Source of the DNA: a virus
Taxonomy: Duplodnaviria > Heunggongvirae > Uroviricota > Caudoviricetes
Strand: one strand, 5' to 3'
Length of the DNA: 23,195 nucleotides
IMG/VR virus record: IMGVR_UViG_2778261179_000020
How positions within the stretch are numbered: position 1 is the stretch's first letter; every line of letters starts with the position of its first letter. Both the position numbers and the translations under genes were made by a program. Below are positions 1 to 23,195 of the stretch, in pieces. A model generated the notes under the pieces. It was not told where the DNA came from. It did no database searches and saw only the letters and a list, made by a program, of their open reading frames with translations.

Positions 1-864
1 ATGAACAATTCTGAAGGTTTGAAGTCGTTTCAGCAATCGCTTGCTGGCCTGCCACAGTGGGTGTCTGAACGTATATTGCAGCAGATAAATCAGTTAACCC
101 ATTACGAGCCAGTAATCGGCATTATGGGTAAGAGCGGTGCCGGTAAATCCTCACTCTGCAATGCCCTGTTTGCCAGTGAGGTATCACCGGTCAGCGATGT
201 CGCGGCCTGTACACGTGAGCCACTGCGCTTTCGACTGCAGGTTGGCGACTGCTATATGACGCTGATGGATCTACCCGGCGTGGGCGAAAGTAGCACGCGC
301 GATACCGAGTATGCTGCGCTGTACCGAGAGCAGCTTTCTCGCCTCGACCTGGTACTGTGGCTGATTAAGGCTGATGACCGGGCACTGGCAGTGGATGAGC
401 ACTTTTATCATCAGGTGATTGGGGAGGCATACCGGCATAAAGTGCTGTTTGTTATAAGCCAGTCGGACAAGGCCGAACCCACCAGCGGTGGGGGACCGTT
501 GTCCACCGCGCAGAAGCAGAATATCAGCCGCAAAATCTGCCTGCTGCATGAGCTGTTCCAGCCCGTACATCCGGTGTGTGCTGTGTCGGTCCGTCTACAA
601 TGGGGGCTTAGGGTGATGGCCGAGCGGATGATTAAGTGCCTGCCACGTGAGGCCACCAGCCCGGTGGTGTCGCAACTCCAGCCTTCCTTTCGCACGACGG
701 TAGTCCGGGAACAGGCTCGAAGCGATTTTGGTGAAACCGTCGGTGCTCTACTCGATAGCATCAGTGCCTTTCCTCTGATACCCACACCTGTGCGGGCCGT
801 CATTCAGGCCGTGCGCACCACCGTGGTCTCTGTGGCCCGCGCCGTCTGGGATTTCTTCTTCTGA
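1..864 (+). CDS. P-loop GTPase, YkfA/YfjP/YeeP family
   Basis: 287-aa ORF with ATG at position 1; Walker A GIMGKSGAGKSS and downstream DLPG motif. Length matches recollection of K-12 YfjP/YkfA. Confidence 0.85.
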   Translation: MNNSEGLKSFQQSLAGLPQWVSERILQQINQLTHYEPVIGIMGKSGAGKSSLCNALFASEVSPVSDVAACTREPLRFRLQVGDCYMTLMDLPGVGESSTRDTEYAALYREQLSRLDLVLWLIKADDRALAVDEHFYHQVIGEAYRHKVLFVISQSDKAEPTSGGGPLSTAQKQNISRKICLLHELFQPVHPVCAVSVRLQWGLRVMAERMIKCLPREATSPVVSQLQPSFRTTVVREQARSDFGETVGALLDSISAFPLIPTPVRAVIQAVRTTVVSVARAVWDFFF

Positions 865-898
865 GTATTTAATCCATCCCTGTTATTTCCCTGACCCT

Positions 899-930
899 GT
901 CGCCGATGCGACGGGGATCCCCTTTATTTG
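899..930 (+). terminator. Putative intrinsic terminator after the GTPase gene
   Basis: Hairpin GTCGC-cgat-GCGAC followed by palindrome GGGGATCCCC and a T-rich tract TTTATTTGTTTT. Confidence 0.3.
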
Positions 931-955
931 TTTTCCCGTTATGAGGAGTCTGCTT

Positions 956-1777
956 ATGACCCGTCTGGCTTCGCGCTTTGGCGCAGCAAACCTTATCCGT
1001 CGCGACCGTCCGTTAACCCGTGAAGAGCTGTTTCGCGTAGTGCCCAGTGTGTTCAGTGAGGACAAACACGAGTCCCGTAGTGAGCGTTATACCTATATAC
1101 CCACCATCTCCCTGCTCGACAGCCTGCAGCGAGAAGGCTTCCAGCCATTCTTTGCCTGTCAGACCCGCGTGCGTGACCCGGGTCGTCGTGAACATACAAA
1201 GCATATGCTGCGTCTGCGGCGGGAAGGGCAGATCACCGGTATACAGGTGCCGGAAATTATTCTACTCAACTCTCACGATGGAACCAGTTCGTATCAGATG
1301 TTGCCGGGACTATTTCGTGCGGTTTGTCAGAACGGGCTCGTCTGCGGTGAGTCGTTTGGCGAGGTGCGGGTGCCACACAAGGGGGACGTGGTGAGTCAGG
1401 TGATTGAAGGCGCGTATGAGGTGCTGGGGATTTTTGACCGGGTGGAGGAGAAACGGGATGCCATGCAGTCGTTGCTGTTGCCACCCCCGGCACAGCAGGC
1501 ACTGGCAAAAGCCGCCCTCACATACCGCTTTGGTGAAGACCACCAGCCGGTGACTGAATCGCAGATCCTCTCCCCTCGCCGCTGGCAGGATGAGAGCAAT
1601 GACCTGTGGACCACGTACCAGCGGATTCAGGAAAACCTGATTAAGGGCGGACTCAGCGGGCGTAATGTTAAAGGCGAACGAACGCATACTCGTGCCGTGC
1701 GTGGCATTGACGGGGACGTGAAGCTTAACCGTGCGCTGTGGGTGATGGCTGAAACACTGCTCACACAACTGCATTAG
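956..1777 (+). CDS. DUF932 family protein, YafZ/YfjQ-like
   Basis: ORF 941..1777; the internal ATG at 956 has AGGAG 7 nt upstream and gives 273 aa, matching the recalled length of this family. Confidence 0.75.
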   Translation: MTRLASRFGAANLIRRDRPLTREELFRVVPSVFSEDKHESRSERYTYIPTISLLDSLQREGFQPFFACQTRVRDPGRREHTKHMLRLRREGQITGIQVPEIILLNSHDGTSSYQMLPGLFRAVCQNGLVCGESFGEVRVPHKGDVVSQVIEGAYEVLGIFDRVEEKRDAMQSLLLPPPAQQALAKAALTYRFGEDHQPVTESQILSPRRWQDESNDLWTTYQRIQENLIKGGLSGRNVKGERTHTRAVRGIDGDVKLNRALWVMAETLLTQLH

Positions 1778-1993
1778 ACGTTTTATGTTGCCACATTGTT
1801 ATTATCGGACACCACCTGTCCGAATTGCTACGTGCTCGTGTGCCTCAATCTCCCGGTAATAGCCTGTAACCCCCGTTACATCTGGCTTTTGTAGAAATAA
1901 AAAATAGTTTCTGCGTTGTCCATACCCTGTCCGCCCCCCTGTTTAAAGTAATCACATCATTTTCAGTCAGTTAACTTTCCTGGAGAACCTCTC

Positions 1994-2695
1994 ATGACAC
2001 AGGCAGAACGCCGCCATGACCGGCTGGCTGTCAGGCTGTCACTGATAATCAGCCGTCTGGTTGCGGGTGAAACGTTGAGCGTGCGCAAACTGGCGGCTGA
2101 GTTTGGCGTGTCGGTGCGCACGCTGCGGCGTGATTTTCGTGAGCGGCTGATGTATCTGGACCTGGAGTATCAGTCCGGATATTGCCGCTTACGCACAGCG
2201 GGCAGTGAGACGCAGATGGTGCCCGACGTGCTTATCTTTGCCCATCGCAGCGGGATGGCCGGTCTTTTTCCTGGCTTTGACCGCCGTCTGGTGAACGCAC
2301 TGCTGATGTGCGATGAGTCTCCCTGCGTTATAGCACCCGCCAATCCGGTTCCTTCGCCTTCAGGAGCATTGTCTTTCTGGAGACTGATTCAGGCCATTAC
2401 CGGGCGCAGGCGGGTAACGCTGATTGCCGAGGAGCAGCGCTGTGAGCGGCTGGCTCCCTGTCGGTTACTCATCCACCAGCAGGCCTGGTATCTGGTGGCA
2501 GAGCACGACGGACATATCGCCGTATTCACCCTGGATGAAATCCATCTGGTTCAGCCCCTGCAGGAGACTTTCCGGCGTAACGACAGTCTGTGTCGTCTTG
2601 TTGAAGACCCGGGCTTTATTCAGTCCTTACCCCATTTTCGCTTTATCCAGCAGTCATTGCTTACATTTGTTCCGGCTGACAGCCCACCGGAATAG
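1994..2695 (+). CDS. HTH transcriptional regulator, DeoR/WYL-type (YfjR-like)
   Basis: 233-aa ORF; N-terminal HTH-like segment [21 protein letters not shown]; GGAGAA upstream of the ATG. Confidence 0.7.
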
Positions 2696-2735
2696 CGCAG
2701 GCATTGTTATCAACCCGGCAACAGGGAGGAGCCCT

Positions 2736-2885
2736 ATGCCCGTTATTGCCATTATCGCCATTGTTGTCATCGTCATCATTCTGAACAAAACCGGGGTGTC
2801 CGACAGTCTCGCGGCCCTGACCCTTGCCACTGTTGCCGCACTGCTGACGGGAGGTGCGCAGCCGGTGCTGCCAGTGTCGCGCTGA
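2736..2885 (+). CDS. Small hydrophobic membrane protein (YpjK-like), apparently frameshifted
   Basis: ATG at 2736 with strong SD AGGGAGGA; MPVIAIIAIVVIVIILNK transmembrane segment; stop at 2883-2885. A second hydrophobic segment continues in another frame to 2971. Confidence 0.4.
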   Translation: MPVIAIIAIVVIVIILNKTGVSDSLAALTLATVAALLTGGAQPVLPVSR

Positions 2886-2970
2886 CACCGTTCGTCGGCG
2901 TGCCGGTGGGTATTTTCGTCGGCATTTATGTCTTTGCCAAAGTGGTACGTCTGATTTCAGGGAAAAAATA

Positions 2971-3414
2971 ATGAAATGTAAAACACTACCTCTGCTGGCG
3001 ATGGTTGCCACCACTCTGTTTCTGAGCGCCTGCGATGACAGGAGTGATGACCTGAAAGCTATCAGTAAATTTAAGGACCTCACGCCTCCGCGCTTCAGCG
3101 ATGTGGTCAGTCGGCAGGATGATGTCAGCGAAGAATGGTCACAGGTTGGCTTTTCATCAGGTCTCACCCTGCAGGTCTTACGTACCCGTGAGTCGCCCGA
3201 TGGCTGCGAGGGCGGTAGTTACTACTACCTCGTGGATATGCAAGAAAAAACCATCCAGCCGCTGATGAATGCGCTGTGTATTGCCGATAACATCAAACTG
3301 GAATACCAGGAGGTGACGGACCCGTATACCAAAGAAAAATACTTTGAGTACGCCCATGACGGCAAACTGATGGGGCAGCTACTGATACCCTCGAACCCTG
3401 ACAATCAGGAATAA
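2971..3414 (+). CDS. Lipoprotein (YafY/YfjS-like)
   Basis: 147 aa from ATG 2971; signal peptide with lipobox LSAC (MKCKTLPLLAMVATTLFLSACDD). The track ORF 2854..3414 has a non-native N-terminal extension. Confidence 0.7.
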   Translation: MKCKTLPLLAMVATTLFLSACDDRSDDLKAISKFKDLTPPRFSDVVSRQDDVSEEWSQVGFSSGLTLQVLRTRESPDGCEGGSYYYLVDMQEKTIQPLMNALCIADNIKLEYQEVTDPYTKEKYFEYAHDGKLMGQLLIPSNPDNQE

Positions 3415-3436
3415 AACAACGACAAAGGAGACAAGA

Positions 3437-3904
3437 ATGACAATACTTTCACTAAGTCGGTTTATGCTGGCGGGTGTACTGCTCGCGAGCTTTAATGCCT
3501 CTGCTATCCCGGGGTTCTGGCAGCAGGGTTACGGTCAGGGCAATACGGAATACAGCGTGACCGAAGCCAGCGGAAAGACGTTTACCATCAACTGCACAGG
3601 GAACCCGGACCAGAATGGTTTCTATCAGCATTCAGTCTTTCTTACCCTTGCCGATGACAAGATGGTCAGTTCGCACGATGACGACACTACTATCACCGTA
3701 GTGATGGATCACCAGCAGTACATTATTCCGTCCAGCCTGGGCTGGCGTAACGGCGATAACGCCTGGTTTGACTTCATCAGCAATATCTCTGAGGCCGGGC
3801 AGTTCGACGTCTACGTCAATGACCACAAAGCAGGGACCTTCACTGCGGACCGGAAGAACACTGAGAAAGTTCTGTCCACTCTCGGAGACTGCAGCAACGA
3901 CTGA
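3437..3904 (+). CDS. Secreted protein with signal peptide (YkfB/YfjT-like)
   Basis: 155-aa ORF; N-terminal hydrophobic signal [23 protein letters not shown]; AAAGGAGA upstream. Confidence 0.65.
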
Positions 3905-3980
3905 TAGTAGTATCTTCCCCAGCAAATCCACCCCGACAGCTAGCAGGCTGCCGGGGTTTTCTTTTATCAGGAGCCCGAAA

Positions 3981-4220
3981 ATGACCCAATCCGTGTTGCT
4001 GCCACCGGGGCCTTTCACCCGGAGACAAGCGCAAGCGGTCACTACCACGTACAGCAATATCACACTCGAAGACGACCAGGGCAGTCACTTCCGTCTGGTG
4101 GTTCGTGATACTGAAGGCCGGATGGTCTGGCGGGCATGGAACTTTGAGCCGGATGCCGGTGAAGGTCTTAACCGCTATATCCGCACCTCAGGCATCCGTA
4201 CAGACACGGCCACCCGCTGA
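3981..4220 (+). CDS. DUF905 family small protein (YkfF-like)
   Basis: 79-aa ORF from the internal ATG of track ORF 3768..4220, with AGGAG upstream; size and position match this family in CP4-type modules. Confidence 0.55.
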
Positions 4221-4273
4221 TCGCGAAGCATTTACCCGCATTCACCTCCCCGAACACACTTTATATCCCCATA

Positions 4274-4300
4274 CGCCAGCCATCGCCGCTGGCGTTTTTA
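4274..4300 (+). terminator. Putative intrinsic terminator or attenuator
   Basis: 7-bp stem CGCCAGC / GCTGGCG with 7-nt loop, followed by TTTTTA. Confidence 0.35.
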
Positions 4301-4317
4301 TTGACGGAGACATACCC

Positions 4318-4776
4318 ATGACAACACAGACGCAGCACGACCTCGCACCCGCTAACCAACCCGAATTTGAACTGACCGTCACGCCGGTCCCCGATGAACA
4401 GCGTATCGATTTCTGGCCACAGTACTTTGGCGCTATCCCGCAGTGGCTACTCCTGGAGCCGCATATCTTCGCCTGGATGGATCGCTTCTGTGAGGGCTAC
4501 AGCGGTGGTATCTGGTCGTTCTACACCCTCAGCAATGGCGGCGCATTTATGTCCCCCGAGCCTGACAACGATGAGACATGGCGTCTGTTTAACTGCCTGA
4601 ACGGTAACGATGCCCAAATGAGTGCAGAAGCAGCAGGTATTGCTGTCTGCCTGATTGCGTATAGCCACCATGCCTGCCGTACAGAATGTGACGCGATGAC
4701 CGCACACTATTACCGCCTGCGGGAGTATGCCATGCAACATCCAGAGGCTCACGCCATTCTGCGTATTATCGACTGA
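4318..4776 (+). CDS. Antirestriction protein, ArdB/KlcA family (YafX/YfjX-like)
   Basis: 152 aa from internal ATG 4318 with GACGGAGA upstream; sequence recognised as the KlcA/ArdB-like protein that precedes RadC in CP4 modules. Confidence 0.8.
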   Translation: MTTQTQHDLAPANQPEFELTVTPVPDEQRIDFWPQYFGAIPQWLLLEPHIFAWMDRFCEGYSGGIWSFYTLSNGGAFMSPEPDNDETWRLFNCLNGNDAQMSAEAAGIAVCLIAYSHHACRTECDAMTAHYYRLREYAMQHPEAHAILRIID

Positions 4777-4791
4777 CCGAAGGAGCAACAG

Positions 4792-5268
4792 ATGAAACAG
4801 CTTTCCTTTTTACCCGGCGAGATGACGCCACAGGACCGGCGTCTCATTCAGCGGGCGCTCAGGGCTCTGGACCGCCACCTGCATGAGCCCGGCGTAGCCT
4901 TCACCTCTACCCACGCCGTACGTGAATGGCTGCGACTGCATATGGCCGCGCTTGAACGGGAAGAGTTCCGGGTGTTGTATCTGGACAACCAGAATCAGTT
5001 GATTGCCCATGAAACGCTCTTCACCGGCACGATTAACCGCACCGAGGTGCATCCCCGGGAGGTGGTCAAACGTGCTCTGCACTTCAACGCGGCGGCGGTG
5101 ATACTCGCGCATAACCATCCTTCCGGCGAGACGACACCTAGCCAGGCCGACAAAACCCTCACGCAGCGACTGGTTCAGGTGCTTCAGCTGGTGGATATCC
5201 GTGTCCCTGACCATCTGATTGTCGGTGGCAGGCAAATCTATTCGTTCGCAGAACACGGTCTGCTTTGA
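4792..5268 (+). CDS. RadC-like JAB/MPN domain protein (YkfG/YfjY/YeeS-like)
   Basis: 158-aa ORF; JAMM-type motif HNHPSG; GGAG SD upstream. Confidence 0.85.
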   Translation: MKQLSFLPGEMTPQDRRLIQRALRALDRHLHEPGVAFTSTHAVREWLRLHMAALEREEFRVLYLDNQNQLIAHETLFTGTINRTEVHPREVVKRALHFNAAAVILAHNHPSGETTPSQADKTLTQRLVQVLQLVDIRVPDHLIVGGRQIYSFAEHGLL

Positions 5269-5276
5269 GGTATTAC

Positions 5277-5498
5277 ATGAAAATTATCAGTAAACGCAGG
5301 GCAATGACGATATACCGCCAGCATCCTGAGTCCCGAATCTTTCGCTACTGCACCGGCAAATACCAGTGGCACGGTAGCGTCTGTCATTACACCGGCAGGG
5401 ACGTTCCGGATATCGCCGGAGTCCTCGCGGTATACGCCGAACGCCGCCAGGACCGCAATGGGCCCTATACCTGCCTGATGAGCATCACCCTGAACTGA
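5277..5498 (+). CDS. DUF987 family protein (YkfH/YeeT-like)
   Basis: 73 aa from the internal ATG (MKIISKRRAMTIYRQHPESRIF...); conserved position between the RadC-like gene and the antitoxin. Confidence 0.65.
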   Translation: MKIISKRRAMTIYRQHPESRIFRYCTGKYQWHGSVCHYTGRDVPDIAGVLAVYAERRQDRNGPYTCLMSITLN

Positions 5499-5516
5499 CA
5501 ATAGTGGAGAACTGTA

Positions 5517-6196
<680 letters not shown>

Positions 6197-6261
6197 ACAT
6201 TGCGTACAACCTTCCCGATTTACATTTCTGAACTTCCTCCCTTGTTTACCTATTGCGTAAT

Positions 6262-6297
6262 GCGCCTGCTACTACCCGGCAGGCGCGTTATCTTTTT
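6262..6297 (+). terminator. Putative rho-independent terminator after the toxin gene
   Basis: Stem GCGCCTGC / GCAGGCGC with 9-nt loop, then GTTATCTTTTT. Confidence 0.5.
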
Positions 6298-6957
6298 ACG
6301 GACAAACAATCATGCAACCAGAAGTTGAAGTATTAACCGATCATAATGAGCTAATTTGTTCGAGCTTTATTGAACACATTGCCAACACATTAAATTTAGG
6401 AGTGGTGTACAACTAAACCTGCAGCCAAGGATGTATAGTGAGCGAAGCCCTATCAGGCCTTTTTGGTCAGTAGATAAGATTGATCTTCGTTGATAGAATT
6501 TACTTACACCAGCTGTTACATTAAGATAATTTTTTGGTGGGAGAATGATAAGATCTTACGTAACAATTTGATTTTAATGGTGCGATAATAGGAGAAAAAC
6601 ACACATCATAAATGCATGATATTTAACCGAATTTACCTATTCCATTTTTACAGATACCCCCAAAAGTACCCCCAACAAATTTTCTATACCATGATTTGTG
6701 CAAAAAATTGACTCTCCTGTACTCCCCTATTTTGTGCCCTATTGCCGATGCTACAACTAATGATATAAGTTATTGAAGCAACCTGAGTCCATTACGATAA
6801 AAATGATATAAGAAAAGAGTATAATAGTTCAACGTATTTACTATGATAAATGAAGTCGATGTGGCAGTGAAGCTCTGGAATATATTAATAATTTTAAGGG
6901 TTGTCATTAGATAACCCCAATTAAAATTGCTTACAACTGGAGTTATCTAACTTTCAC

Positions 6958-7719
6958 TCACTGAATAGTCTCATTATCTTCAGGCTTAGTTATTTCATCT
7001 TCTAATTTATCCAACCACGTTATAGCACATTGATTCAAATCGATGATCAGATTTTCCACATACACAATTATTGAATTAAATTTCCTAGGGTTAACACTAC
7101 TTTTAAACTCCCCATGTCCCAAAGAATTTCTAAGGCCAACAACCTCACCTAGTTGCGATAAATCAAGTGATGAATAATCCAAACCTATAGCATCGAAATT
7201 CACCTTGACAACCATTTCATTCACATTGGAAAATGTCATAACTAATTCAGAAACATCGCAATCTGATAATGTGGATTTATTAAACCTGTCAATGTGTTGA
7301 ATTACCTCACTTGTTAGTTTAAACGCCCCCTTCGTAACTTTCTTTTTTATTTGGGCGCCATTATGGACAATGCTTCGGTGTGAGTCAGCATCATAAATAT
7401 TTTTTATCATATCTACATACTTGCTATAAAATGGTTCTCGTTGCAACCAAAGTGCTCGAATTTCTGCAGAGTATCTAAATGCCTCTCTATCTGAGAGTTT
7501 CAATGTATTTAAGCAAACTGACATTGTTTCAGTAAAAAAACCCTCCCAAGAAGAATAAATCATTGGGACCGATATTATTCTAAACATATCCTCCTTGTCT
7601 TTATCACCTGATCTCGACATAAACTCATTAATAGACTTTATGCTCTCAAGGAATCCAAGACTTTCATTTTTCGTCTTTTCCAACATCACCTTGAAATCAT
7701 CGAAATCTGATATTCTCAT
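6958..7719 (-). CDS. HEPN-domain protein (putative RNase), third gene of the MTase-DUF262-HEPN operon
   Basis: 253 aa from ATG at 7719 (the track start at 7743 is TTG); AAGGTG upstream; C-terminal Rx4H motif in GLRNSLGHGEF; start lies 1 nt after the DUF262 stop; AT-rich. Confidence 0.55.
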   Translation of the reverse strand: MRISDFDDFKVMLEKTKNESLGFLESIKSINEFMSRSGDKDKEDMFRIISVPMIYSSWEGFFTETMSVCLNTLKLSDREAFRYSAEIRALWLQREPFYSKYVDMIKNIYDADSHRSIVHNGAQIKKKVTKGAFKLTSEVIQHIDRFNKSTLSDCDVSELVMTFSNVNEMVVKVNFDAIGLDYSSLDLSQLGEVVGLRNSLGHGEFKSSVNPRKFNSIIVYVENLIIDLNQCAITWLDKLEDEITKPEDNETIQ

Positions 7720-7720
7720 T

Positions 7721-8833
7721 TTATCCAAACACCTTCTTCCCAAGAGCGATTCTTTTCTCTAATTTGGCTTTAGTATTAGATCCAGAACCAGTACAAGCTC
7801 TTAATTCTTTGATCTCACCATCCATTAAATAATCAAATCTTTTCGCCACCTCAGCAGGTGTTAAATTATCTACATTACTAAAAATACCAACAGCAACAAC
7901 ATCTAATAAATTAGTACTAAACGGGCCACTTGGAGCACCATCCTTTCTAAATTTAAATGCTTTACCAGATAAACCAGCAATATTTATCAAATCAAAAGTT
8001 CTTTTTATTTTTAATTCAAAATTAATATCAATAACATTATGTTCTGCCGCGTAGAACATAAATTCATCCAAAAAGTCAGTTACACTATGGCTAAATTTAT
8101 CCGCATAAGTCAAAGATGCCATAACTCGTAGCAAAGCTTCCTCAACACCTTGAGATTTTTGGCCATCTTCATTTATTCCAAGAGCTTGAACAATACCATC
8201 AATTTCGGCCATCTTACGTAAGCGATCTGCAAATTCATTCCCTGCTAATCTAGCCATGCAATTACGTATTTCCTGGTCACTCAAACGAACACCAGACCTA
8301 TTCAGTCGTTTAAAAACATTATATTTAGTTTCAGGTTTTGTTTCTTGCTCCAAAATAACAACATTTACTCGCGCATTTTTTATAGTTCGGCTAACTTTGT
8401 CCGGCAATCCTTTTGCAGTCCATCCATTTAATTCTGTAATTATAGGCACATCATCAAGAACAGTTGGATTACGGACATCATTTACAGAGTTTTGTTTCTT
8501 TGCATTATCTATTTCTTCCTTATTAAAAATATCCTCTGAAAAAAATCTAATTATAGTACTCACACGTTGCAATCCATCGATAACCTCCTGCTTACCATTA
8601 TTATCAATGTAGAAAAAAAGTGTTGGCGTAGGTATATTTAAAAGTAATGACTCGATAAATTGGCTTTGTCTTGCGTTATCCCAACGAAAAAGCCTTTGGT
8701 AGTCTGGAGAAATGGTTATCTCATTTTCTTTATATAGATTAATTACTTCACGCCATGATATGGTATAAGAATCAGTTACTACCTCATCTCTTTTTTCATC
8801 TATCTGAGATAGCAATTTAGTTACGTCATTCAT
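7721..8833 (-). CDS. DUF262 (ParB/Srx-like NTPase) domain protein
   Basis: 370-aa ORF; hallmark motifs DYQRLFRW and IDGLQR (DGQQR-like) in the N-terminal half; its ATG overlaps the MTase stop (ATGA). Confidence 0.75.
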   Translation of the reverse strand: MNDVTKLLSQIDEKRDEVVTDSYTISWREVINLYKENEITISPDYQRLFRWDNARQSQFIESLLLNIPTPTLFFYIDNNGKQEVIDGLQRVSTIIRFFSEDIFNKEEIDNAKKQNSVNDVRNPTVLDDVPIITELNGWTAKGLPDKVSRTIKNARVNVVILEQETKPETKYNVFKRLNRSGVRLSDQEIRNCMARLAGNEFADRLRKMAEIDGIVQALGINEDGQKSQGVEEALLRVMASLTYADKFSHSVTDFLDEFMFYAAEHNVIDINFELKIKRTFDLINIAGLSGKAFKFRKDGAPSGPFSTNLLDVVAVGIFSNVDNLTPAEVAKRFDYLMDGEIKELRACTGSGSNTKAKLEKRIALGKKVFG

Positions 8834-10056
8834 TTTGTTATCCTTATGATTTTTTCAAAATAAACTTTATCTTTAATATAATTTTTTGACTTGGTATTTA
8901 TTTGTCCAAATATTGCTTTAACTTGATCTTCTCTCACACATTTCGCTTCTGAAAACCCAATAGAAAGCGCCATTTCACAATAAATATCATAAAGCGGAAT
9001 CTCTATTTCCTTATAATATGAATTTTGTATTACAAAATAACCAGAGCAACCTACCTTTAAAACTCTAAAGATTTCCATTAATGACTCATACGCATCAGAA
9101 AAATATCTAATTTTATTTTTAAGGTAATAACTTCCAGATGCTCTTGATGTATGCGATGTTACCGATGACAAAACATCCATACACAATGGCCCCCATTTTT
9201 TATTAATTTCATCCGCAACTTTAGGCACAGTCGTCGTGCCCATCATTTCCTTTCTAAGAGACTTATATCCCTCACTCCCTAAAATTATTTCCAACTCAAG
9301 ACGAGTAGAAACGGCATAGTCTATTCGTGTTAAATACGGTGGCGATGTAATAACAAGATCAATTGTGTTACTTTTAATATTTAATTTTTTACTATCCACG
9401 TTTAAAATCGAGTAACATGCCCCCCCATTAGCGCTGCCATAATATTCACTTAACTGCTCACGCATAATTTTAAAATTTTTATTATATTCAAAACAAATAT
9501 CAAATTTATTATTAAAGTCTACTTTTTTAGAAATCCATGTAGGATTTGAAGTTGACCTAACATCAAGGACATTGCGAACAGTATAAAATAAAACACTGCA
9601 ATAAAATGCTTTTAAAGGATTTACGATATCATTTTGTCCTTTATCCATAAACTGATCACAGATACATTTATAAAACTTTTGTAACTGTTCAATAAGTGGA
9701 TAGCCCTTCGATGACTCAGTTATATCTTTTGTTTTTTTTCTAAAGCAAAGCAGTATCCTTTCCAGGAGTTGCTCTCCGGTATAATCCAGCGCTGAAATAT
9801 TATCCCTACTTTTGGCTGCAGCAAAATAGCTCATTACAGGATTAATATCTGCTCCAATACACTTTATGGTTTGCTTTTGACAAACTATACCAGTGGTACC
9901 GCTTCCCATCCAAGGATCAAGAACGGTAGCGGACGACTTAACTCCTTCAGCCTGCAAAACAGAAGCCACAAATGACTCTGAATAGCCCGCATAGTATGGA
10001 TGCCAAGAGTGAAGCCCCTTGCGTTCGTTTCTCCCTCTTTTCGCGCCTGCAATCAT
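8830..10056 (-). CDS. DNA amino-methyltransferase (N6-adenine or N4-cytosine)
   Basis: 408-aa ORF; AdoMet motif I DPWMGSGTT near the N-terminus and catalytic motif IV SPPY (LVITSPPYLTRIDY) mid-protein. Confidence 0.85.
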   Translation of the reverse strand: MIAGAKRGRNERKGLHSWHPYYAGYSESFVASVLQAEGVKSSATVLDPWMGSGTTGIVCQKQTIKCIGADINPVMSYFAAAKSRDNISALDYTGEQLLERILLCFRKKTKDITESSKGYPLIEQLQKFYKCICDQFMDKGQNDIVNPLKAFYCSVLFYTVRNVLDVRSTSNPTWISKKVDFNNKFDICFEYNKNFKIMREQLSEYYGSANGGACYSILNVDSKKLNIKSNTIDLVITSPPYLTRIDYAVSTRLELEIILGSEGYKSLRKEMMGTTTVPKVADEINKKWGPLCMDVLSSVTSHTSRASGSYYLKNKIRYFSDAYESLMEIFRVLKVGCSGYFVIQNSYYKEIEIPLYDIYCEMALSIGFSEAKCVREDQVKAIFGQINTKSKNYIKDKVYFEKIIRITK

Positions 10057-10405
10057 CTTTAAATCACTTACCCAAAATTTTCAATTGAGGCTCATAATAC
10101 GGGGATCCGTATAAGCTCAAAATTTGCTCCTGAAGTTAACTGATTAGGATACTTGAAACACAGAGTCTTTCAATAATGATTAAGCAATCCTGCGTAAGTG
10201 CTCTCCTCAACATGCCTGCCTGCTTCACATGGTCAATTCTCCTGCATACGTATGGCAAAAAGCCTATCAGAATCGGCAGTTTTCAACATAAACTCCCACC
10301 AGCCACAGAACACAATATTACGACATAAAAAATATCAACCAATTAACGCATCGATAAGCTAGACGGCTAGCGAACTCAATTTTGAACTACCTTTTAAACA
10401 ACCCT

Positions 10406-10585
10406 TTATCGCCGCAGCCTGTCCGGTTTCTTCCACTGATACGGCCTCACATCATCATGCTGGTGGCGTTCCTGTTGCAGCACAACGGAAACAGGCGCTG
10501 AACACCTGTTAATTTTGCTTGCTGGTTGTTTGATTTCGGCAATGCTGCGGAGCATCTCCAGCATATCGGCTTCGGTGATGGTCAT
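10406..10585 (-). CDS. Hypothetical small protein (59 aa), first ORF upstream of the MTase operon
   Basis: ATG at 10585 with AAGGTG 3-4 nt upstream; translation MTITEADMLEMLRSIAEIKQ...; not in the ORF track (under 60 aa). Confidence 0.25.
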   Translation of the reverse strand: MTITEADMLEMLRSIAEIKQPASKINRCSAPVSVVLQQERHQHDDVRPYQWKKPDRLRR

Positions 10586-10614
10586 GATTTACACCTTAGG
10601 AAATCTTAGGGGCT

Positions 10615-10878: not shown

Positions 10879-11406
10879 TCATTGATGGCCTGATTTTTCC
10901 CATTCAGCCAAGGCGTTTAGTCCTGCCTCACTCCATGTGTCCTGTTCATCGGGACAATCGCTGGCAACATAGCAGAGTTCGCAACGCAGCATACGAATTG
11001 CCAGCCTGGCATTACCTCGCAAATTGTATTTTTCAAAGTAATGCTGCCCTTCATCATCCTCAAGACAGATAGCACCATCATCAAGAAAGTGCACTTCCCA
11101 GCCTAATTCCCCGGCTGCATACAGCACACGCTGCTGTATGGCCTCGTCCGTTACTGGCGCAGGAATTTTACCGTCTCTGGCCTTAACTGCTTTCCAGAAC
11201 TCGCCCCATGTCATTTCCAGCGTTCTTTCTGGCCACATTTCAGAAATGGTGTCTTTCCCCTGTGCTGGTGGGCTGTTCCGCTGCTCTGTCGCTTCCACAT
11301 CAATTTTTTTACCGGACATGACCACTTCGCCTTTCTCGAGCCAGTCGTAAACTGTCTGGCGGCTTACGCCTTTGTATTTGGCGTATTCGGCTTTACTCAT
11401 CAACAT
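10879..11406 (-). CDS. Putative DNA-binding protein with N-terminal winged-HTH (Nu1/MerR-superfamily-like)
   Basis: Track ORF 10879..11424; the ATG at 11406 has GAGGTG 7 nt upstream. The N-terminal segment KGVSRQTVYDWLEKGEV resembles the HTH of lambda Nu1-type small terminases, by recollection. Confidence 0.5.
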   Translation of the reverse strand: MLMSKAEYAKYKGVSRQTVYDWLEKGEVVMSGKKIDVEATEQRNSPPAQGKDTISEMWPERTLEMTWGEFWKAVKARDGKIPAPVTDEAIQQRVLYAAGELGWEVHFLDDGAICLEDDEGQHYFEKYNLRGNARLAIRMLRCELCYVASDCPDEQDTWSEAGLNALAEWEKSGHQ

Positions 11407-11505
11407 GTAGCTCACCTCATGCATATACGATAAAAAATAATTTCATGCGGAAAGGGAATGCGTTGTGGGTATGGAGGAAAGGGGCAATAACCGCCCCTTA
11501 CTGAT

Positions 11506-15081: not shown

Positions 15082-16887
15082 TTATGTTCTGTCGTTAATC
15101 CCTGTAGCTGCTGGCAACCAGCCATCAGCATCATCATCTAACAGAACATTTGTTATCACTCGCCCTTTATCCGGGCCTTTAGTGCATTTAGCCCGCTTAT
15201 ACTCCTTTCCGTATTCCGCCATAGCTCCTGGCATATCAGTACCAAAGCGTGTCAGTGATACTGGTTTTCCCAGGCCATGCGCTGACATATAGGCTAAATA
15301 AGCATGATACAGGTATCGCCTCGGGCTAAATGGCACTATTTCCGCATTGCCCACCATCATTCCTTCACATTTAACCAACGACATCAGATAGCCGCAAAAG
15401 TCCACCAGTGAATCACCTTCGCGCTTTATCAACAGCGCTTCTTCTGATTTTTGCTGCTCATAAAGTAGTCTTTTAGCTTCGTCCTGGTCGGTAAATCGTG
15501 TTAGCAAATGGCGAATCACTACCGCCAGTTCGCCTTCTATCTTTTCCGCCAGCATGGGATCGCGTTCGTTCTCCGGTACGACCTCAGAGAAATTAAATAT
15601 CACCCTACGACGCGAGATCCCCCCGCTTCGGTCACTGAATGACATGGCGTTATTGTTTACCGCAAGCACTACTGCCGGAATACGTGTGGAGTAGGGGGCT
15701 TTATGTTTCGGATCAATTGCCACCTTGTCGCCGCCAGTAATTGCCTTAATTCCTGCACCATCGCCAGCGTAGCGAGTCATATCCGGCATGATAATCAGCG
15801 AAAAGCCAACTACTAACGCGCGTTCCCTTGCGTCTTCCAGAGCCTTCATGCTTGCCGATACTGTGTTGGCCTTACCCGCCAGCATGGTACAAATCTCAGC
15901 CATCACACTTTTACCGCTTCCGCCTGGGCCTGTTACCTCAAGGAATAACTGCCAGTCGTACCGGTTCGCCAGTACCATGAATAATGCCGCCAGTACGCGA
16001 TCAGCTTTACGATCATTATCTGCCACCGAACGACGCAGCCACTTCCAGAAATTCGGCGCATGTGTTGCCAGCGTTTCCCCCTCTGCTGGTGGGCTGAACG
16101 GTAATTCACTGGCATTTAACAACCAGTCATTTTTGTTATGCTCCCGAAAATTTCCCGTCCGGGTATCAAATACCCCGTTACTGAATCCAATAAGATTCCT
16201 GTCTGCCCCGCCCATAACAGGCAGGCTCAATTTCATTGTGTCTACGGCAAATTTAATGGCGTTTTGCGAATAACTGATTCCAGCATCAATAAAAATCTTC
16301 GCCATAGACCGCTGGAGTTCCTTATCAGATACAGGCACCCAGACAATTCCGTTGTAATGGTGAACTACATCAGAATCATCATTTATAGCCAGTGCTCTTC
16401 CATAATATTCAAGTAACACTTCCCCTCTCTGGCTGGCTCCCATCTGATTTAGTGCTGGCCTGGATAGGTCAATATTTTTTGTGGCTAATTTCATCGCTGA
16501 AACTTCCCCACTCTCTGCCTGTTCGCGGATCCGTTGCAGGTAGTCGCGCCAGTTTTCCGGCTCCCGGTCGGTGATACCTTTGTATAATTTCGCGTCCTGT
16601 ACACCAGCCAGCGCCAGCTTTTCAGCAATAGCATTGATCTGGATTGGCTCTATCTCCCCCGCGAGATAGACACGCGCAAAGCGGCGTTCATCGTCGACAA
16701 TGCGGATATTCGCCAGGTCTGCCAGTTGCTTTGGCCCCAGGTAAACAGGAGGCACGTTATCGCCGTGTTTTCGTCCTTCGCTTTCAATCCAGTGTTGAGC
16801 ATGGGCGTAAGCATCCGTCCCGGCAAAAATGATTACCTCGGTGAATTTATCCTTCGGCTGATATTTTAAATTCGGTGCGTTTTTCAC
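15082..16887 (-). CDS. Primase/helicase-like replication initiator (P4-alpha / D5-type P-loop NTPase)
   Basis: 601-aa ORF; Walker A GPGGSGKS; GTG start with GGGAGGT upstream, overlapping the preceding gene's stop. Confidence 0.85.
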   Translation of the reverse strand: MKNAPNLKYQPKDKFTEVIIFAGTDAYAHAQHWIESEGRKHGDNVPPVYLGPKQLADLANIRIVDDERRFARVYLAGEIEPIQINAIAEKLALAGVQDAKLYKGITDREPENWRDYLQRIREQAESGEVSAMKLATKNIDLSRPALNQMGASQRGEVLLEYYGRALAINDDSDVVHHYNGIVWVPVSDKELQRSMAKIFIDAGISYSQNAIKFAVDTMKLSLPVMGGADRNLIGFSNGVFDTRTGNFREHNKNDWLLNASELPFSPPAEGETLATHAPNFWKWLRRSVADNDRKADRVLAALFMVLANRYDWQLFLEVTGPGGSGKSVMAEICTMLAGKANTVSASMKALEDARERALVVGFSLIIMPDMTRYAGDGAGIKAITGGDKVAIDPKHKAPYSTRIPAVVLAVNNNAMSFSDRSGGISRRRVIFNFSEVVPENERDPMLAEKIEGELAVVIRHLLTRFTDQDEAKRLLYEQQKSEEALLIKREGDSLVDFCGYLMSLVKCEGMMVGNAEIVPFSPRRYLYHAYLAYMSAHGLGKPVSLTRFGTDMPGAMAEYGKEYKRAKCTKGPDKGRVITNVLLDDDADGWLPAATGINDRT

Positions 16888-17963: not shown

Positions 17964-18180
17964 GGTGCACCTCCTGTACATCAGCCATGATAATTTTTCC
18001 GGCTTTATCCAGTGCCTGATCGGCTTTCAGCTGCACAAATGCTAAATAATGGGAGATGCATTCTGATTCTCTGGCTGCGTGTTTATGCGCCACACCAGCG
18101 ATAGCAGAAATCTCAATAAGTGAATCCATCAGCGTTTTGATAGCGTCTACCGCTGCATCAGGCCATGTTGCATTACACAT
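17956..18180 (-). CDS. Hypothetical protein (74 aa)
   Basis: ATG at 18180; 8-nt overlap with the upstream 122-aa gene. Confidence 0.4.
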   Translation of the reverse strand: MCNATWPDAAVDAIKTLMDSLIEISAIAGVAHKHAARESECISHYLAFVQLKADQALDKAGKIIMADVQEVHHA

Positions 18181-18538
18181 GCTCCACCTCCTGGCGAATA
18201 CGGGCAGCGAATACCATCACGCAGCCATCAGGAGATTGCTGGCGTGCTTCCTGTTCGCTGGTGGCCTCGATGTGAATCACGCGCGGTTGTGCCGTACTCA
18301 GGGCGATAAAACGCCAGATAAAATTGTTTTCGCATTTCTGAATAAACAGCGTGTTTTCTTCGCGCCCTTTCCATGTTGCCGAGATATAGCCCATGTCATT
18401 GAGCATCTCGCAGGCATCAACCAGCGTATCGGCGGCTACGTGTACAGTGTTTTTACCGTCAGCAATGCAATCACGGTGCACCGCCAGGAAGGTGTATATA
18501 AATTTAGGGTGAGTTTGGGTATGCTGTGTTCCAGCCAT
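18173..18538 (-). CDS. Hypothetical protein (122 aa), first gene of the leftward replication operon
   Basis: ATG at 18538 with GAGGT 8 nt upstream; it is the C-terminal part of the stop-free track ORF 18173..19759, which I reject as a single protein. Confidence 0.5.
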   Translation of the reverse strand: MAGTQHTQTHPKFIYTFLAVHRDCIADGKNTVHVAADTLVDACEMLNDMGYISATWKGREENTLFIQKCENNFIWRFIALSTAQPRVIHIEATSEQEARQQSPDGCVMVFAARIRQEVEHV

Positions 18539-18604
18539 AATCGTTACCTCGTTTAACGGTTTGGTTAGACGCCCTGCATGTGTGCCACCACTGCGGGGCG
18601 TTGC

Positions 18605-18637
18605 TGTATATACACCACAACAATTGGTGTATATACA
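18605..18637. promoter_or_regulatory. Operator-like perfect inverted repeat in a divergent control region
   Basis: TGTATATACACC (18605-18616) - 9 nt - GGTGTATATACA (18626-18637); further ACACC/GGTGT half-sites downstream to about 18710; lies between the leftward operon and the rightward small ORF. Confidence 0.45.
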
Positions 18638-18728
18638 AATTAAATTTAAGTGTGCTACAGTGTCAAGTGTTTTATCAACACACCTTTTGGTGTAATGTGT
18701 ACACACCTCAAAATAACCGGACATTCTG

Positions 18729-19034
18729 ATGGCAACAGGAAACATCAACAGCAGATCGCAAATGAAAAATATCCGCTTCCCCCATGATGTAATCGAGGAA
18801 ATGGAAAATTCGAAAACGGAAGGGGAAACAATAGCCGCTTTCGTGATTACAGCCGTTCGCGGTGAAATCGCCCGCCGCCAGGCAGAAGGAAGCGGAGAAA
18901 ATCCCCTGGTTTCTTCGCTCGATGCCCTAGCGCAGGTGGAAAAAATCGGAGTCAAAGCTGCCGAGGAAATCGGGCAACTCGTCACCGTCGCGCGTGAAGA
19001 ACTCCAGCGGCGCAAAGCTAAAGAGCAGGAATAA
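18729..19034 (+). CDS. Possible ribbon-helix-helix-type DNA-binding protein
   Basis: 101-aa ORF (alternative start MKNIRF at 18762); beta-strand then helix pattern KNIRFPHDVIEEME / ETIAAFVITAVRGEIARRQ; composition typical of a real protein, unlike the antisense frame; weak SD. Confidence 0.4.
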   Translation: MATGNINSRSQMKNIRFPHDVIEEMENSKTEGETIAAFVITAVRGEIARRQAEGSGENPLVSSLDALAQVEKIGVKAAEEIGQLVTVAREELQRRKAKEQE

Positions 19035-19091
19035 CCACTATAGGTGCCGTGGTGTGAGGAACTACGGTGCATTATTTTACAGGGCAGCGCC

Positions 19092-19292
19092 ATGACCAAC
19101 AAAGAATCAACCAATACACCATCACCGGCACGGAAAAGACAGCGCAGAAAGATAGCGTACGAGCATGAGTCAGACAGATTCGCGCCCTGTGCGTTTGTCC
19201 TTGAGAAATTCCTTAAAGAGTACAGGCGCACAAAAATGGGGTCGCATACCTGGAAAACATCGCGGCATGGCAATGTTAAAGAGCAGGAATAG
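19092..19292 (+). CDS. Possible small basic protein (66 aa)
   Basis: Internal ATG of track ORF 19044..19292; basic; ends KEQE* like the preceding ORF; weak SD. Confidence 0.25.
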   Translation: MTNKESTNTPSPARKRQRRKIAYEHESDRFAPCAFVLEKFLKEYRRTKMGSHTWKTSRHGNVKEQE

Positions 19293-19368
19293 CCCACCAG
19301 CAAGCCAGCATATTCACCATAATGACCCTCAGTTAAACATAGAGTCATTGGTGCAAAGCTGACACATT

Positions 19369-19759
19369 GCCCACCAGCCGCAAATCTGGCATTGTTGGCG
19401 ATGCGTTCAAGTATGTAGCTTTCCCACTGGCGGCCCTCTGCGGTCGCCTTTGTTTTATCCAGAACGAAATCAGACATCAGATTGATCAGCACCTGGCGAC
19501 CTGACAAAATCGCATCAGTCGCGCCACCAGCAAAATTTTTTGCTTTCCGGACAGTGTGACCAACGACATTTTGCAGCAAAATATTCTGCATTTCTGGCGT
19601 GCTGTAGTAACGGTGATCAGCGCCTTCACTCTGTGCGACCACAACGCTATAATCTGCCTCGTAGACAGTAAGCAATATGGCGCAGTAGGCTATTCGTTCA
19701 CAAAGGCGCTCCGGCAACGGGGCGCTTTCTCTTTTTGTAACGGTCAGAGCGTTACACAT
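19369..19759 (-). CDS. Possible CDS downstream of the AntA-like gene; 3' end undefined (approximate)
   Basis: ATG at 19759 overlaps the AntA-like stop; the first ~130 codons look protein-like, but the frame has no stop until 18173 and the middle translation is Cys/Ser-rich. Confidence 0.25.
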
Positions 19760-20629: not shown

Positions 20630-20827
20630 TCAGGTAGCTGTTCCGCGTGATTCCGCAATACGCTGATTAATCCACTCGTCAATTTCACTCTCAACGAAAG
20701 CAATAGCTCGCGAGCCAATTTTAACTGATGCAGGAAATTTACCTTGCCCCATAAGGCGATAAATCCATGCCTTGCTATATCCAGTTCTACGCTGAACTTC
20801 TGTTAAACGAATAAGCGTATTTGACAT
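20630..20827 (-). CDS. alpA: AlpA-family phage transcriptional regulator / excisionase-like
   Basis: 65-aa ORF; hallmark AlpA sequence LIRLTEVQRRTGYSKAWIYRLMGQGKFPASVKIGSRAIAFVESEIDEW; GAGGT SD. Confidence 0.85.
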   Translation of the reverse strand: MSNTLIRLTEVQRRTGYSKAWIYRLMGQGKFPASVKIGSRAIAFVESEIDEWINQRIAESRGTAT

Positions 20828-21852: not shown

Positions 21853-21980
21853 ACGCACACCTCAGCGTCCTCTACTGTAGTGGCTGTACCAGTCCGTCGA
21901 GGTGTACGGATTTTCGGGAGCGACCCTAGACACAGCCTTTTCTTTCGTCGCTCAAAGTCTACTACTGTATACTCAACCAG

Positions 21981-23195
21981 TCACCCGCATTTTCCGAACT
22001 CACCATGCACCACATTTCCGCCATGCTCGAGCGAATCCATATAATCAGCGTACCACTGAAGCATTTCCCGCCGCCCATCCAGATATTGCGCATGGTTGTA
22101 TGTGCCACGAATTGAGTTTTTATCGACGTGCGCAAGCTGTGTCTCTATCCACGCGGTGTTATAGCCCTGCTCATGCAAAATGGTGCTCATAGTGTGCCGG
22201 AAGCCATGACCAGTAACCTTTCCGTTATAGCCGATGCGTTTAAATACTTGGTTTATGCTAGCCTCGCTCATTGTTTTCCTTGGATCATTACGGCCGGGAA
22301 ACATAAGCGGATAATTGCCAGTTAGTTCTTTAATCTGCCCAATAAGCGAAAGAGCCTGCTCAGACAAAGGCACTACATGAGGGCGACGCATTTTCATCCG
22401 TGAAGCAGGTATCTCCCAGATAGCCTTGTTGAGATCGATTTCATCCCATAATGCACCGCGCAGTTCGCCAGTCCGCAAACCGGTGATAATCAGTAAACGA
22501 GCCGCCATAACAACCAATGCACTTCCTGAGTAACTGGACAATGCCTTGAAAAAATCAGGTAATTCTTTGGCTGTGAGGAAAGGATAATGATTAGATTCAT
22601 GACCTTGCATCGCGCTGGTGAGATCCGGTGCAGGGTTATACTCAGCACGTCCAGTGACAATTGCATAGCGGAAAACTTCCCCACATCGCTGCCTCACTTT
22701 TTTGGCTTTTTCGGTAGCACCGCGCCCCTCGATGCGCCGCAGCACATTCAGCAGTTCAAGTGGTTTGATTTCGGCGATTGGTTTTTTGCCAATGTAAGGG
22801 AACACATCTTTGTTGAAGGCTTCGAGGATGTCTGAAGCATAACCAGCAGACCATTTTTTTAATTTGCTGCTGTGCCACTCAAGGGCAATATCTTTGAAGG
22901 TGTTGTTTAACTGCGTTTCCCGGGCAATCTTTTCCTCTCGTTTCGCTTCCATCGGATCGATACCCCCAGCGATACCCCTTTTAGCTTCTTCACGTTTTGC
23001 ACGAGCATCAGCCAAGGTAACTTCAGGATACACACCTAGTGCTAACAGCTTCTCTTTACCAGCTACACGATACTTGAAGCGCCAATATTTTCCTCCACTA
23101 GGTTTTACCAAGAGATACAGACCACCACCATCAGCCAGCTTGTAAGCCTTCTCTTTTGGCTTGGCAGTGTCTATTTGACGGGCATTGAGTTTCAC
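21981..23195 (-). CDS. int: Tyrosine recombinase / phage integrase (P4-family-like); 5' end at or just beyond the window edge
   Basis: 404 codons; N-terminus ..KLNARQIDTAKPKEKAYKLADGGGLYLLVKPSGGKYWRFKYR typical of P4-type integrases; catalytic HGFRHT and Tyr-containing RGTYNHAQY near the C-terminus; first codon in the window is GTG. Confidence 0.9.
   Translation of the reverse strand: MKLNARQIDTAKPKEKAYKLADGGGLYLLVKPSGGKYWRFKYRVAGKEKLLALGVYPEVTLADARAKREEAKRGIAGGIDPMEAKREEKIARETQLNNTFKDIALEWHSSKLKKWSAGYASDILEAFNKDVFPYIGKKPIAEIKPLELLNVLRRIEGRGATEKAKKVRQRCGEVFRYAIVTGRAEYNPAPDLTSAMQGHESNHYPFLTAKELPDFFKALSSYSGSALVVMAARLLIITGLRTGELRGALWDEIDLNKAIWEIPASRMKMRRPHVVPLSEQALSLIGQIKELTGNYPLMFPGRNDPRKTMSEASINQVFKRIGYNGKVTGHGFRHTMSTILHEQGYNTAWIETQLAHVDKNSIRGTYNHAQYLDGRREMLQWYADYMDSLEHGGNVVHGEFGKCG

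Follow-up and report, generated by a model that had tools for sequence, protein, structure and literature searches.

A probable tandem-integration seam at thrW between the end of a CP4-6-type prophage and a PICI-like satellite

The non-coding stretch at positions 6197-6957 of the caudoviral DNA analyzed here, a single stretch of 23,195 nucleotides that we call the window, is very probably the seam of two integrative elements that lie in tandem at the tRNA-Thr gene thrW of Escherichia coli. On its left lies the end of a CP4-6-type cryptic prophage that is proximal to thrW (window 1-6594); to its right, beginning at 6595 and extending past 23195, is a second element of 16.6 kb from its core to the tRNA. 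In kind, a seam of this sort, from tandem integration at a known hotspot, is ordinary; it joins a known prophage end to an undescribed relative of a described satellite family. The thrW gene is listed as one of the tRNA genes of E. coli used most often for integration (PMC7545054); in O157:H7, tandem prophages are reported at thrW, and tandem integration (accretion) of prophages and integrative elements is known from thrW, ompW, ssrA and leuX (PMC9997748). The O157:H7 cases share with the present one two independent acquisitions at one att site, with the target repeat between them; they differ in the particular pair of elements, not in kind.

A point boundary between two convergent modules

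The 761-nt junction resolves into three parts, namely the tail of the CP4-6-type element (6197-6577), an att core (6578-6594) and an arm of the second element (6595-6957). The initial annotation, made from the letters of the sequence, had described a junction zone of about 650 bp across which two mobile elements abut head to head. Instead, there is a point boundary at 6578-6594, flanked by 381 nt of the left element and 363 nt of the right element, and the modules converge tail to tail, stop codon towards stop codon, with the integrase of each element at its far side. Correspondence to K-12 stops exactly after TGGTGCGATAATAGGAG, where the window passes into the far end of a 16.6-kb element known from other genomes. 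The junction is AT-rich as had been described, with a GC content of 35.9% in 6197-6957 versus 55% in the left module, but this composition is not peculiar to it and extends into the neighboring cargo genes (34.1% GC in 6958-10056). Likewise, the palindrome pointed out near 6549-6558 is present (TAAGATCTTA, inside the CP4-6 tail and in K-12 as well), but perfect 10-mer palindromes are at chance level in the junction (1 seen versus 1.09 expected in shuffles, P=0.66). The statement that the junction holds no recognizable tRNA stands, with 0 genes reported by ARAGORN; further, no Rfam family matches the junction even at E<=1 and no ORF within 6197-6957 exceeds 45 codons.

The thrW-proximal end of a CP4-6-type prophage

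Window 1-6594 is collinear with the ykfA...yafW-ykfI-ykfN-thrW end of CP4-6 in K-12 at about 93-99% identity, with 92.9% over 1-2186, an interruption between 2186 and 2744, and 98.9% over 2744-6594, the stretch that contains the toxin gene. The features closest to the boundary are the following:

5517-5834, plus strand: YafW/CbeA-type antitoxin gene (Pfam CbeA_antitoxin, 1.7e-49; collinear with K-12 yafW)
5855-6196, plus strand: YkfI/CbtA-type toxin gene, the last gene of the CP4-6-type element (Pfam CbtA_toxin, 3.9e-68; ATG at 5855)
6197-6577, no strand: non-coding 381-nt CP4-6 tail, equivalent to the K-12 ykfI-thrW spacer (381/381 identical to K-12 MG1655)
6257-6297, plus strand: intrinsic-terminator-like hairpin with T run, 3' of the toxin gene (stem-loop 6257-6291; 14-pair stem with 7 GC pairs, then CTTTTT)
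6312-6374, plus strand: ykfN pseudogene fragment of CP4-6 (exact match to K-12 b4626)

The tail that follows the toxin stop codon thus contains a terminator and a ykfN pseudogene, both as in K-12. The stem-loop with its T run, base-for-base the same in K-12, is the sole terminator-like site in 5800-7300. Both the toxin match and this site bear out the initial annotation, which had ended the rightward CP4-type module with a CbtA-family toxin and a terminator; its statement that the toxin end of CP4-6 adjoins thrW in K-12 agrees with the order in MG1655, where the CP4-6 genes ykfN, ykfI, yafW and so on directly adjoin thrW. The window and K-12 hence share gene order, sequence, terminator and ykfN fragment, and differ in what follows: the K-12 tail runs into the intact tRNA gene, whereas the window tail runs into a 17-nt copy of the tRNA end and then into the second element. 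They differ, too, in that K-12 has the pseudogenes ykfK/ykfL where the window holds an intact gene at 1994-2695. The ORF in question encodes a WYL-domain protein by the annotation of the collinear locus of strain 2273-PO3, which matches window 1-6674 at 98.7% DNA identity.

Two minor sequence motifs were seen in this element. A single match to the IHF consensus WATCAANNNNTTR (AATCAAATTGTTA), on the minus strand at 6561-6573, is a candidate site in the CP4-6 tail directly left of the core. At window 1800-1814, TATTATCGGACACCA nearly repeats the thrW 3' end in inverted orientation (14/15, with one T inserted); it is intergenic, follows the DUF932 gene of the CP4-6 module, and is present in 2273-PO3 too (fetched locus 16300-16314). 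We considered it as an old att site and rejected it: its score of 24 falls within the shuffle range and it lies inside the CP4-6 module, and it is probably a chance occurrence.

The second element has the organization of a phage-inducible chromosomal island

To the right of 6958 the large genes lie on the minus strand up to the integrase. The initial annotation had read every gene there as leftward, which holds for the large genes; a few small ones are on the plus strand, for example the YlcI/YnfO gene at 18729-19034. The principal features are:

6958-7743, minus strand: HEPN nuclease, RiboL-PSP/MAE_28990 (Pfam)
7721-8833, minus strand: DUF262/GmrSD_N protein (Pfam; PADLOC NsnA 1.2e-55, PD-T4-2_A 1.1e-41)
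8830-10056, minus strand: N6/N4 DNA methyltransferase (Pfam; PADLOC MTase_II)
15082-16887, minus strand: primase/helicase (D5_N, DUF5906; profile matches)
20630-20827, minus strand: AlpA-family regulator/excisionase-like gene (PHROG 2790 and 66, ~1.5e-11; AlpA family by the annotation of GF4)
21869-21936, minus strand: int-alpA RNA motif RF02996 (45.5 bits versus a gathering score of 35.8)
21981-23195, minus strand: tyrosine integrase of the second element, with an N-terminal arm-DNA-binding domain and central and catalytic domains (Pfam Arm-DNA-bind_3 3.6e-29, Phage_int_M 1.3e-34, Phage_integrase 4.2e-26)

The window ends at the integrase start codon. Further genes of the element code for an AntA antirepressor, an Icd-like protein, a DUF4222 protein, a ProQ/FinO protein and a PerC-family protein, and a weak small-terminase-like HTH is found at 10879-11424. 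The order of int followed by alpA in one direction (minus), together with a primase, is that of Gram-negative phage-inducible chromosomal islands; the length of 16.6 kb falls in the range of that class (~10-20 kb), and no capsid, tail or lysis families were found among the 20 ORFs scanned. Judged by this gene content and order, the second element is a PICI-like satellite. A P4-like satellite was considered and rejected: families of the hallmark Psu/Sid/Delta/Eps type (capsid size and transactivation) are missing among the same 20 ORFs and a P2-type cos is missing as well, with no match in searches for the lambda and P2/P4 cos.

Related elements share only about 10.2/10.6-23.2 kb with the window. 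Since the more distant relatives stop matching at 10057-10600, the region from 6595 to about 10,600 behaves as a variable, probably defence-related, cargo region at the att-distal end of the element.

Two other observations concern this element. The RF02996 motif lies just downstream of the integrase gene and upstream of the next ORF, of 267 codons. An open frame of 528 codons at 18173-19759 (minus strand) was considered as a missed gene and discarded: only its last ~50 residues have homologues (Icd-like), it is antisense to the well-supported YlcI/YnfO gene at 18729-19034 (PHROG 9e-49), and RefSeq annotates only its 3' 121 codons.

The described family to which the element is related is that of EcCIMP1, the phage-inducible chromosomal island of E. 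coli MP1, which lies in tRNA-Thr in the proA-yagU interval, in tandem with a vat/MarR island (PMC11773190). EcCIMP1 undergoes excision and transfer only with a helper phage, for which its integrase and alpA are needed (PMC11773190); specifically, the integrase is required for helper-induced excision from tRNA-Thr (PMC11773190). The integrase of the second element is 96% identical in amino acids to that of EcCIMP1 (390/405 aligned positions). The two islands further share the integration site between proA/thrW and the yagU side, an AlpA gene downstream of int, AntA antirepressor, DUF4222, Icd-like and PerC-family genes, a single-C distal core with a TACCCCCAA block 60-70 nt from it, and a place innermost at the tRNA with an older island pushed outward. 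In contrast, DNA outside the integrase is unrelated or only ~70-74% identical. The primase of EcCIMP1 is of the TOPRIM/DUF927 type versus D5_N/DUF5906 here; its cargo consists of ejection-protein-like genes versus methyltransferase, DUF262 and HEPN genes here; and its outward neighbor is the vat island versus CP4-6 here. Helper-induced excision, replication and packaging come from experiments on EcCIMP1, whereas the second element is known from its sequence. The comparison implies that an EcCIMP1-type integration module can carry quite different cargo and replication genes.

The two elements occur apart at the same site

The whole window was compared by megablast with 5,426 complete E. coli genomes, none of which covers at least 80% of it. 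In 12 of them the match runs from ~6568-6577 to 23195 at 99.6-99.9% identity, and we fetched six of these (PD23, E189, 4314, GF4, AHB12 and FDAARGOS_1301). In all six, identity to the window starts at the core, the element is 99.7-99.9% identical, and its integrase start lies 166 nt from tRNA-Thr, which is followed by proA, proB and phoE, an arrangement that identifies the thrW locus. In every one the second element is also the element nearest to the tRNA. We infer from these genomes that the proximal junction of the present genome, which lies beyond the window, is probably of the same form.

What lies to the left of the element is, in contrast, of four kinds in the six genomes: GF4 has the native yagP/paoD flank there, PD23 a yagU-side integrase fragment, E189 and 4314 a block of hypothetical genes, and AHB12 and FDAARGOS_1301 a vat/MarR island. 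The CP4-6 end in the window is a fifth. Conversely, about 417 of the 5,426 genomes match at 99% identity or more and end at the core, the sampled rows being annotated there with tRNA-Thr. Roughly 860 E. coli genomes in all have a match to window 6450-6700. Each element is thus found alone at the same site elsewhere, CP4-6 in K-12 and those ~417 genomes and the satellite in GF4. The exact pair of a CP4-6 end and the second element is absent from the 5,426 complete E. coli genomes; a CP4-6 end beside an EcCIMP1-type island is seen in strain 2273-PO3.

These comparisons agree with the initial annotation on its central proposal, that a second element had inserted between an older prophage end and its tRNA: the switch in sequence falls at the core, and tRNA-Thr stands 166 nt from the integrase in all six genomes. 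The strains that lack the second element, which it had suggested comparing, are the ~417 genomes that end at the core, and the fixed order of a single element, which it had named as the observation that would speak against it, is not what is seen, as the second element occurs without the CP4-6 toxin module in six genomes.

The exact boundaries that emerge put the end of the CP4-6 tail at 6577, the core at 6578-6594 and the satellite from 6595 to past 23195. The methyltransferase/DUF262/HEPN cargo consequently belongs to a mobile satellite-like island and not to CP4-6.

The att core, its arms and the position of strand exchange

The sites around the boundary are the following:

6567-6577, no strand: TTTGATTTTAA, flank directly downstream of the tRNA 3' end (part of a longer CP4-6 att repeat in K-12)
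6576-6583, no strand: AATGGTGC, putative strand-exchange block (tRNA GCACCA plus 2 nt downstream), proposed from the 11/14 single-C distal junctions and the tRNA copy that keeps CC
6578-6594, minus strand: att core at the tRNA-distal junction of the second element, TGGTGCGATAATAGGAG (the 18-nt 3' end of thrW, reverse-complemented and short of one C)
6595-6957, no strand: non-coding att arm (P' arm) of the second element, 363 nt, between the core and the HEPN stop codon
6655-6675, plus strand: tandem pair of arm-type sites TACCCCCAA-AAG-TACCCCCAA at a distance of 60 nt from the core; candidates for binding by the integrase's arm-binding domain

A direct repeat of the tRNA 3' end had been proposed for either 6197-6957 or 10057-10600. 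It is in the former: the core matches 17/18 nt of the thrW 3' end, with a gapped local alignment score of 30 where 500 shuffles of the interval gave at most 26, and is oriented as the tRNA copy is in the reference loci. At 10057-10600, the best score is 14 and there is no copy; this region is instead the boundary of the variable cargo inside the second element. A search for the 18-nt thrW end that allowed mismatches only gave no match, because the core copy differs by an indel, which gapped local alignment found. In K-12, the same 11 nt TTTGATTTTAA stand in front of both thrW-end copies.

The 363-nt arm begins directly after the core in PD23, E189, 4314 and GF4 too, at 99.9% identity. Its 9-mer TACCCCCAA stands at 6655 and 6667, with a 12-nt period, and has no further exact copies elsewhere in the 23-kb window; the integrase-side (int-thrW) arm of the same element in PD23 carries three copies, two in tandem and one inverted. 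Given the arm-binding domain of the integrase, these repeats are most simply predicted to be arm-type integrase-binding sites. An attP of the lambda/P4 type consists of arm-type sites bound by the N-terminal domain of the integrase and a core with a 6-8 bp overlap. The present arrangement is similar in the arm-binding integrase domain and in 9-mers that are repeated, directly or inverted, in the two arms at distances that are conserved. It differs in the sequence of the motif and in the probable crossover, which would lie at the asymmetric 3' end of the tRNA and not in the T-loop or anticodon loop. The classes of sublocation, namely T-loop, anticodon-loop and 3'-end, are summarized in 10.1101/2020.11.02.365908. 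Across eight aligned distal junctions, the arms of which have diverged to a mean column identity of 59%, two blocks remain conserved: the invariant 18-nt AATGGTGCGATAATAGGA, and TACCCCCAAAAGTACCCCCA, which has variants in three arms.

Two features of the repeats may be mentioned on their own. The number of arm units varies, GF4 having three TACCCCCAA units (locus ~3080-3130) versus two in the window and the other copies of the element. The inverted copy in PD23 (locus 22628-22636, just past window position 23195) lies between the GGAGG ribosome-binding site and the GTG of the integrase, a position that suggests that the integrase could bind there and regulate its own expression.

The C that is missing from the core recurs as such. 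Of the 14 distal junctions examined, 11 have a single-C core; they represent at least six different elements, and their left flanks are of four kinds. The second element accounts for four of them (in the window, GF4, AHB12 and FDAARGOS_1301); the others are those of EcCIMP1 in MP1, of the EcCIMP1-type island in 2273-PO3 and of five other relatives (in SCU-316, JL05, 2014C-3057, 98193 and AR_0011). Every tRNA-proximal copy examined has CC. What adjoins the core on the left in MP1, AHB12 and FDAARGOS_1301 is an older island's integrase-side arm, and a complete tRNA end must once have stood next to it. Read most economically, the single C would belong to the elements and lie on the arm side of the crossover.

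The presence of a single C on the arm side in many islands, with CC kept by the tRNA, would place the crossover to the left of the C, in AATGGTGC. We consider it reasonably probable that strands are exchanged within this 8-nt block of identity, at the extreme 3' end of the tRNA; such an exchange would correspond to the asymmetric 3'-end sublocation class, which is known for some integrase subfamilies (summarized in 10.1101/2020.11.02.365908). The authors of the EcCIMP1 study hypothesized TCCTATTATC as its core (PMC11773190), which lies across the C from the block proposed here. If exchange does occur in AATGGTGC, the islands would never provide a functional tRNA end, excision would restore thrW exactly, and each distal junction would be a fingerprint of one integration event. 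Exact restoration of thrW fits the proficiency of EcCIMP1 in excision despite its single-C junction. This placement, a modest suggestion, is the sole mildly new point of the analysis, and the difference between the cores could be used at little cost to test and refine where this integrase family exchanges strands.

An alternative that we regard as unlikely is that the C was lost by decay of a useless tRNA fragment after integration, such that the core would be a degenerate relic and the element perhaps locked in place. The distal copy is indeed free of selection on the tRNA. Moreover, the single-C rule has exceptions, all in the same 99.9%-identical element, which would require extra mutations: PD23 has a different lesion, with CCG missing (locus 6009-6025), and E189 and 4314 have the intact CC (loci 6001-6019). 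Against decay stand the recurrence of one single-C form at 11/14 distal junctions that differ in left flank (four kinds) and in arm (diverged to 59% mean identity), and EcCIMP1, which has a single-C junction yet excises, circularizes and transfers. Decay that might lock the element in place was rejected as the explanation of the missing C upon this recurrence and the excision proficiency of EcCIMP1. Accordingly, of the degenerate att core that had been expected in the junction, the core exists at 6578-6594; the word degenerate is probably wrong, the single-C form being more likely the regular one carried by the elements.

Order of arrival

We propose the following course of events. A CP4-6-type prophage would have come first, with its toxin end against thrW as in K-12. 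The 16.6-kb satellite, with its integrase, AlpA, primase, PerC and defence cargo, would then have integrated site-specifically into the 3' end of thrW, and this insertion would have put 16.6 kb between the tRNA and the CP4-6 end. The integrase may have bound the TACCCCCAA repeats in both att arms and exchanged strands in AATGGTGC, such that the tRNA would retain its own body and CC and the distal junction would receive the single-C half-core of the element, CGATAATAGGAG. To the right of 23195 one would then expect an arm of ~166 nt with TTGGGGGTA and TACCCCCAAAAGTACCCCCAA, followed by an intact thrW and proA.

We favor CP4-6 as the older element on three grounds: its junction with thrW is common (the ~417 genomes above) and the 381-nt tail is identical here; the satellite is near-identical across unrelated contexts, with the CP4-6 module 1-7% off K-12; and the satellite is always innermost in the fetched genomes. 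The reverse order appears quite improbable to us. In it, the satellite would have been first at thrW and the CP4-6-type element would later have entered the distal core of the satellite by means of its own IntF-type integrase. It predicts the same final map, such that the map by itself fits either sequence of events, and the distal junction does keep TTTGATTTTAA and 17 nt that overlap a 60-nt repeat flanking CP4-6 in K-12. Yet the CP4-6/thrW junction whose tail the window repeats without change is widespread, at 99% identity or more. Likewise, the 99.7-99.9% identity of the satellite across at least five left contexts suggests that it spread recently, against 93-99% identity of CP4-6 to K-12, and no fetched genome has it farther from the tRNA than its neighbor. 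Further, K-12 CP4-6 is surrounded by repeats of a 49-nt tRNA segment, 31 nt of which are missing from the distal core.

That the whole window might be a single composite element of fixed order, with 6197-6957 as an internal intergenic region, is scarcely credible: both modules are horizontally acquired and adjacent, and a related pair exists in 2273-PO3, but either half is found at this site in the absence of the other, the change of sequence falls on the tRNA-end repeat, no genome of the 5,426 covers the window in one piece to the extent given above, and GF4, in which the satellite stands alone between the native yagP flank and thrW, contradicts it.

Finally, a CbtA-family toxin gene is met at thrW in another setting. 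In AR_0011 (locus 613-903), such a gene belongs to a different island, with the arm motif TGCCCCC..., from within which it faces the distal thrW junction; K-12 and the window have the opposite arrangement, their toxin end being turned towards the tRNA.
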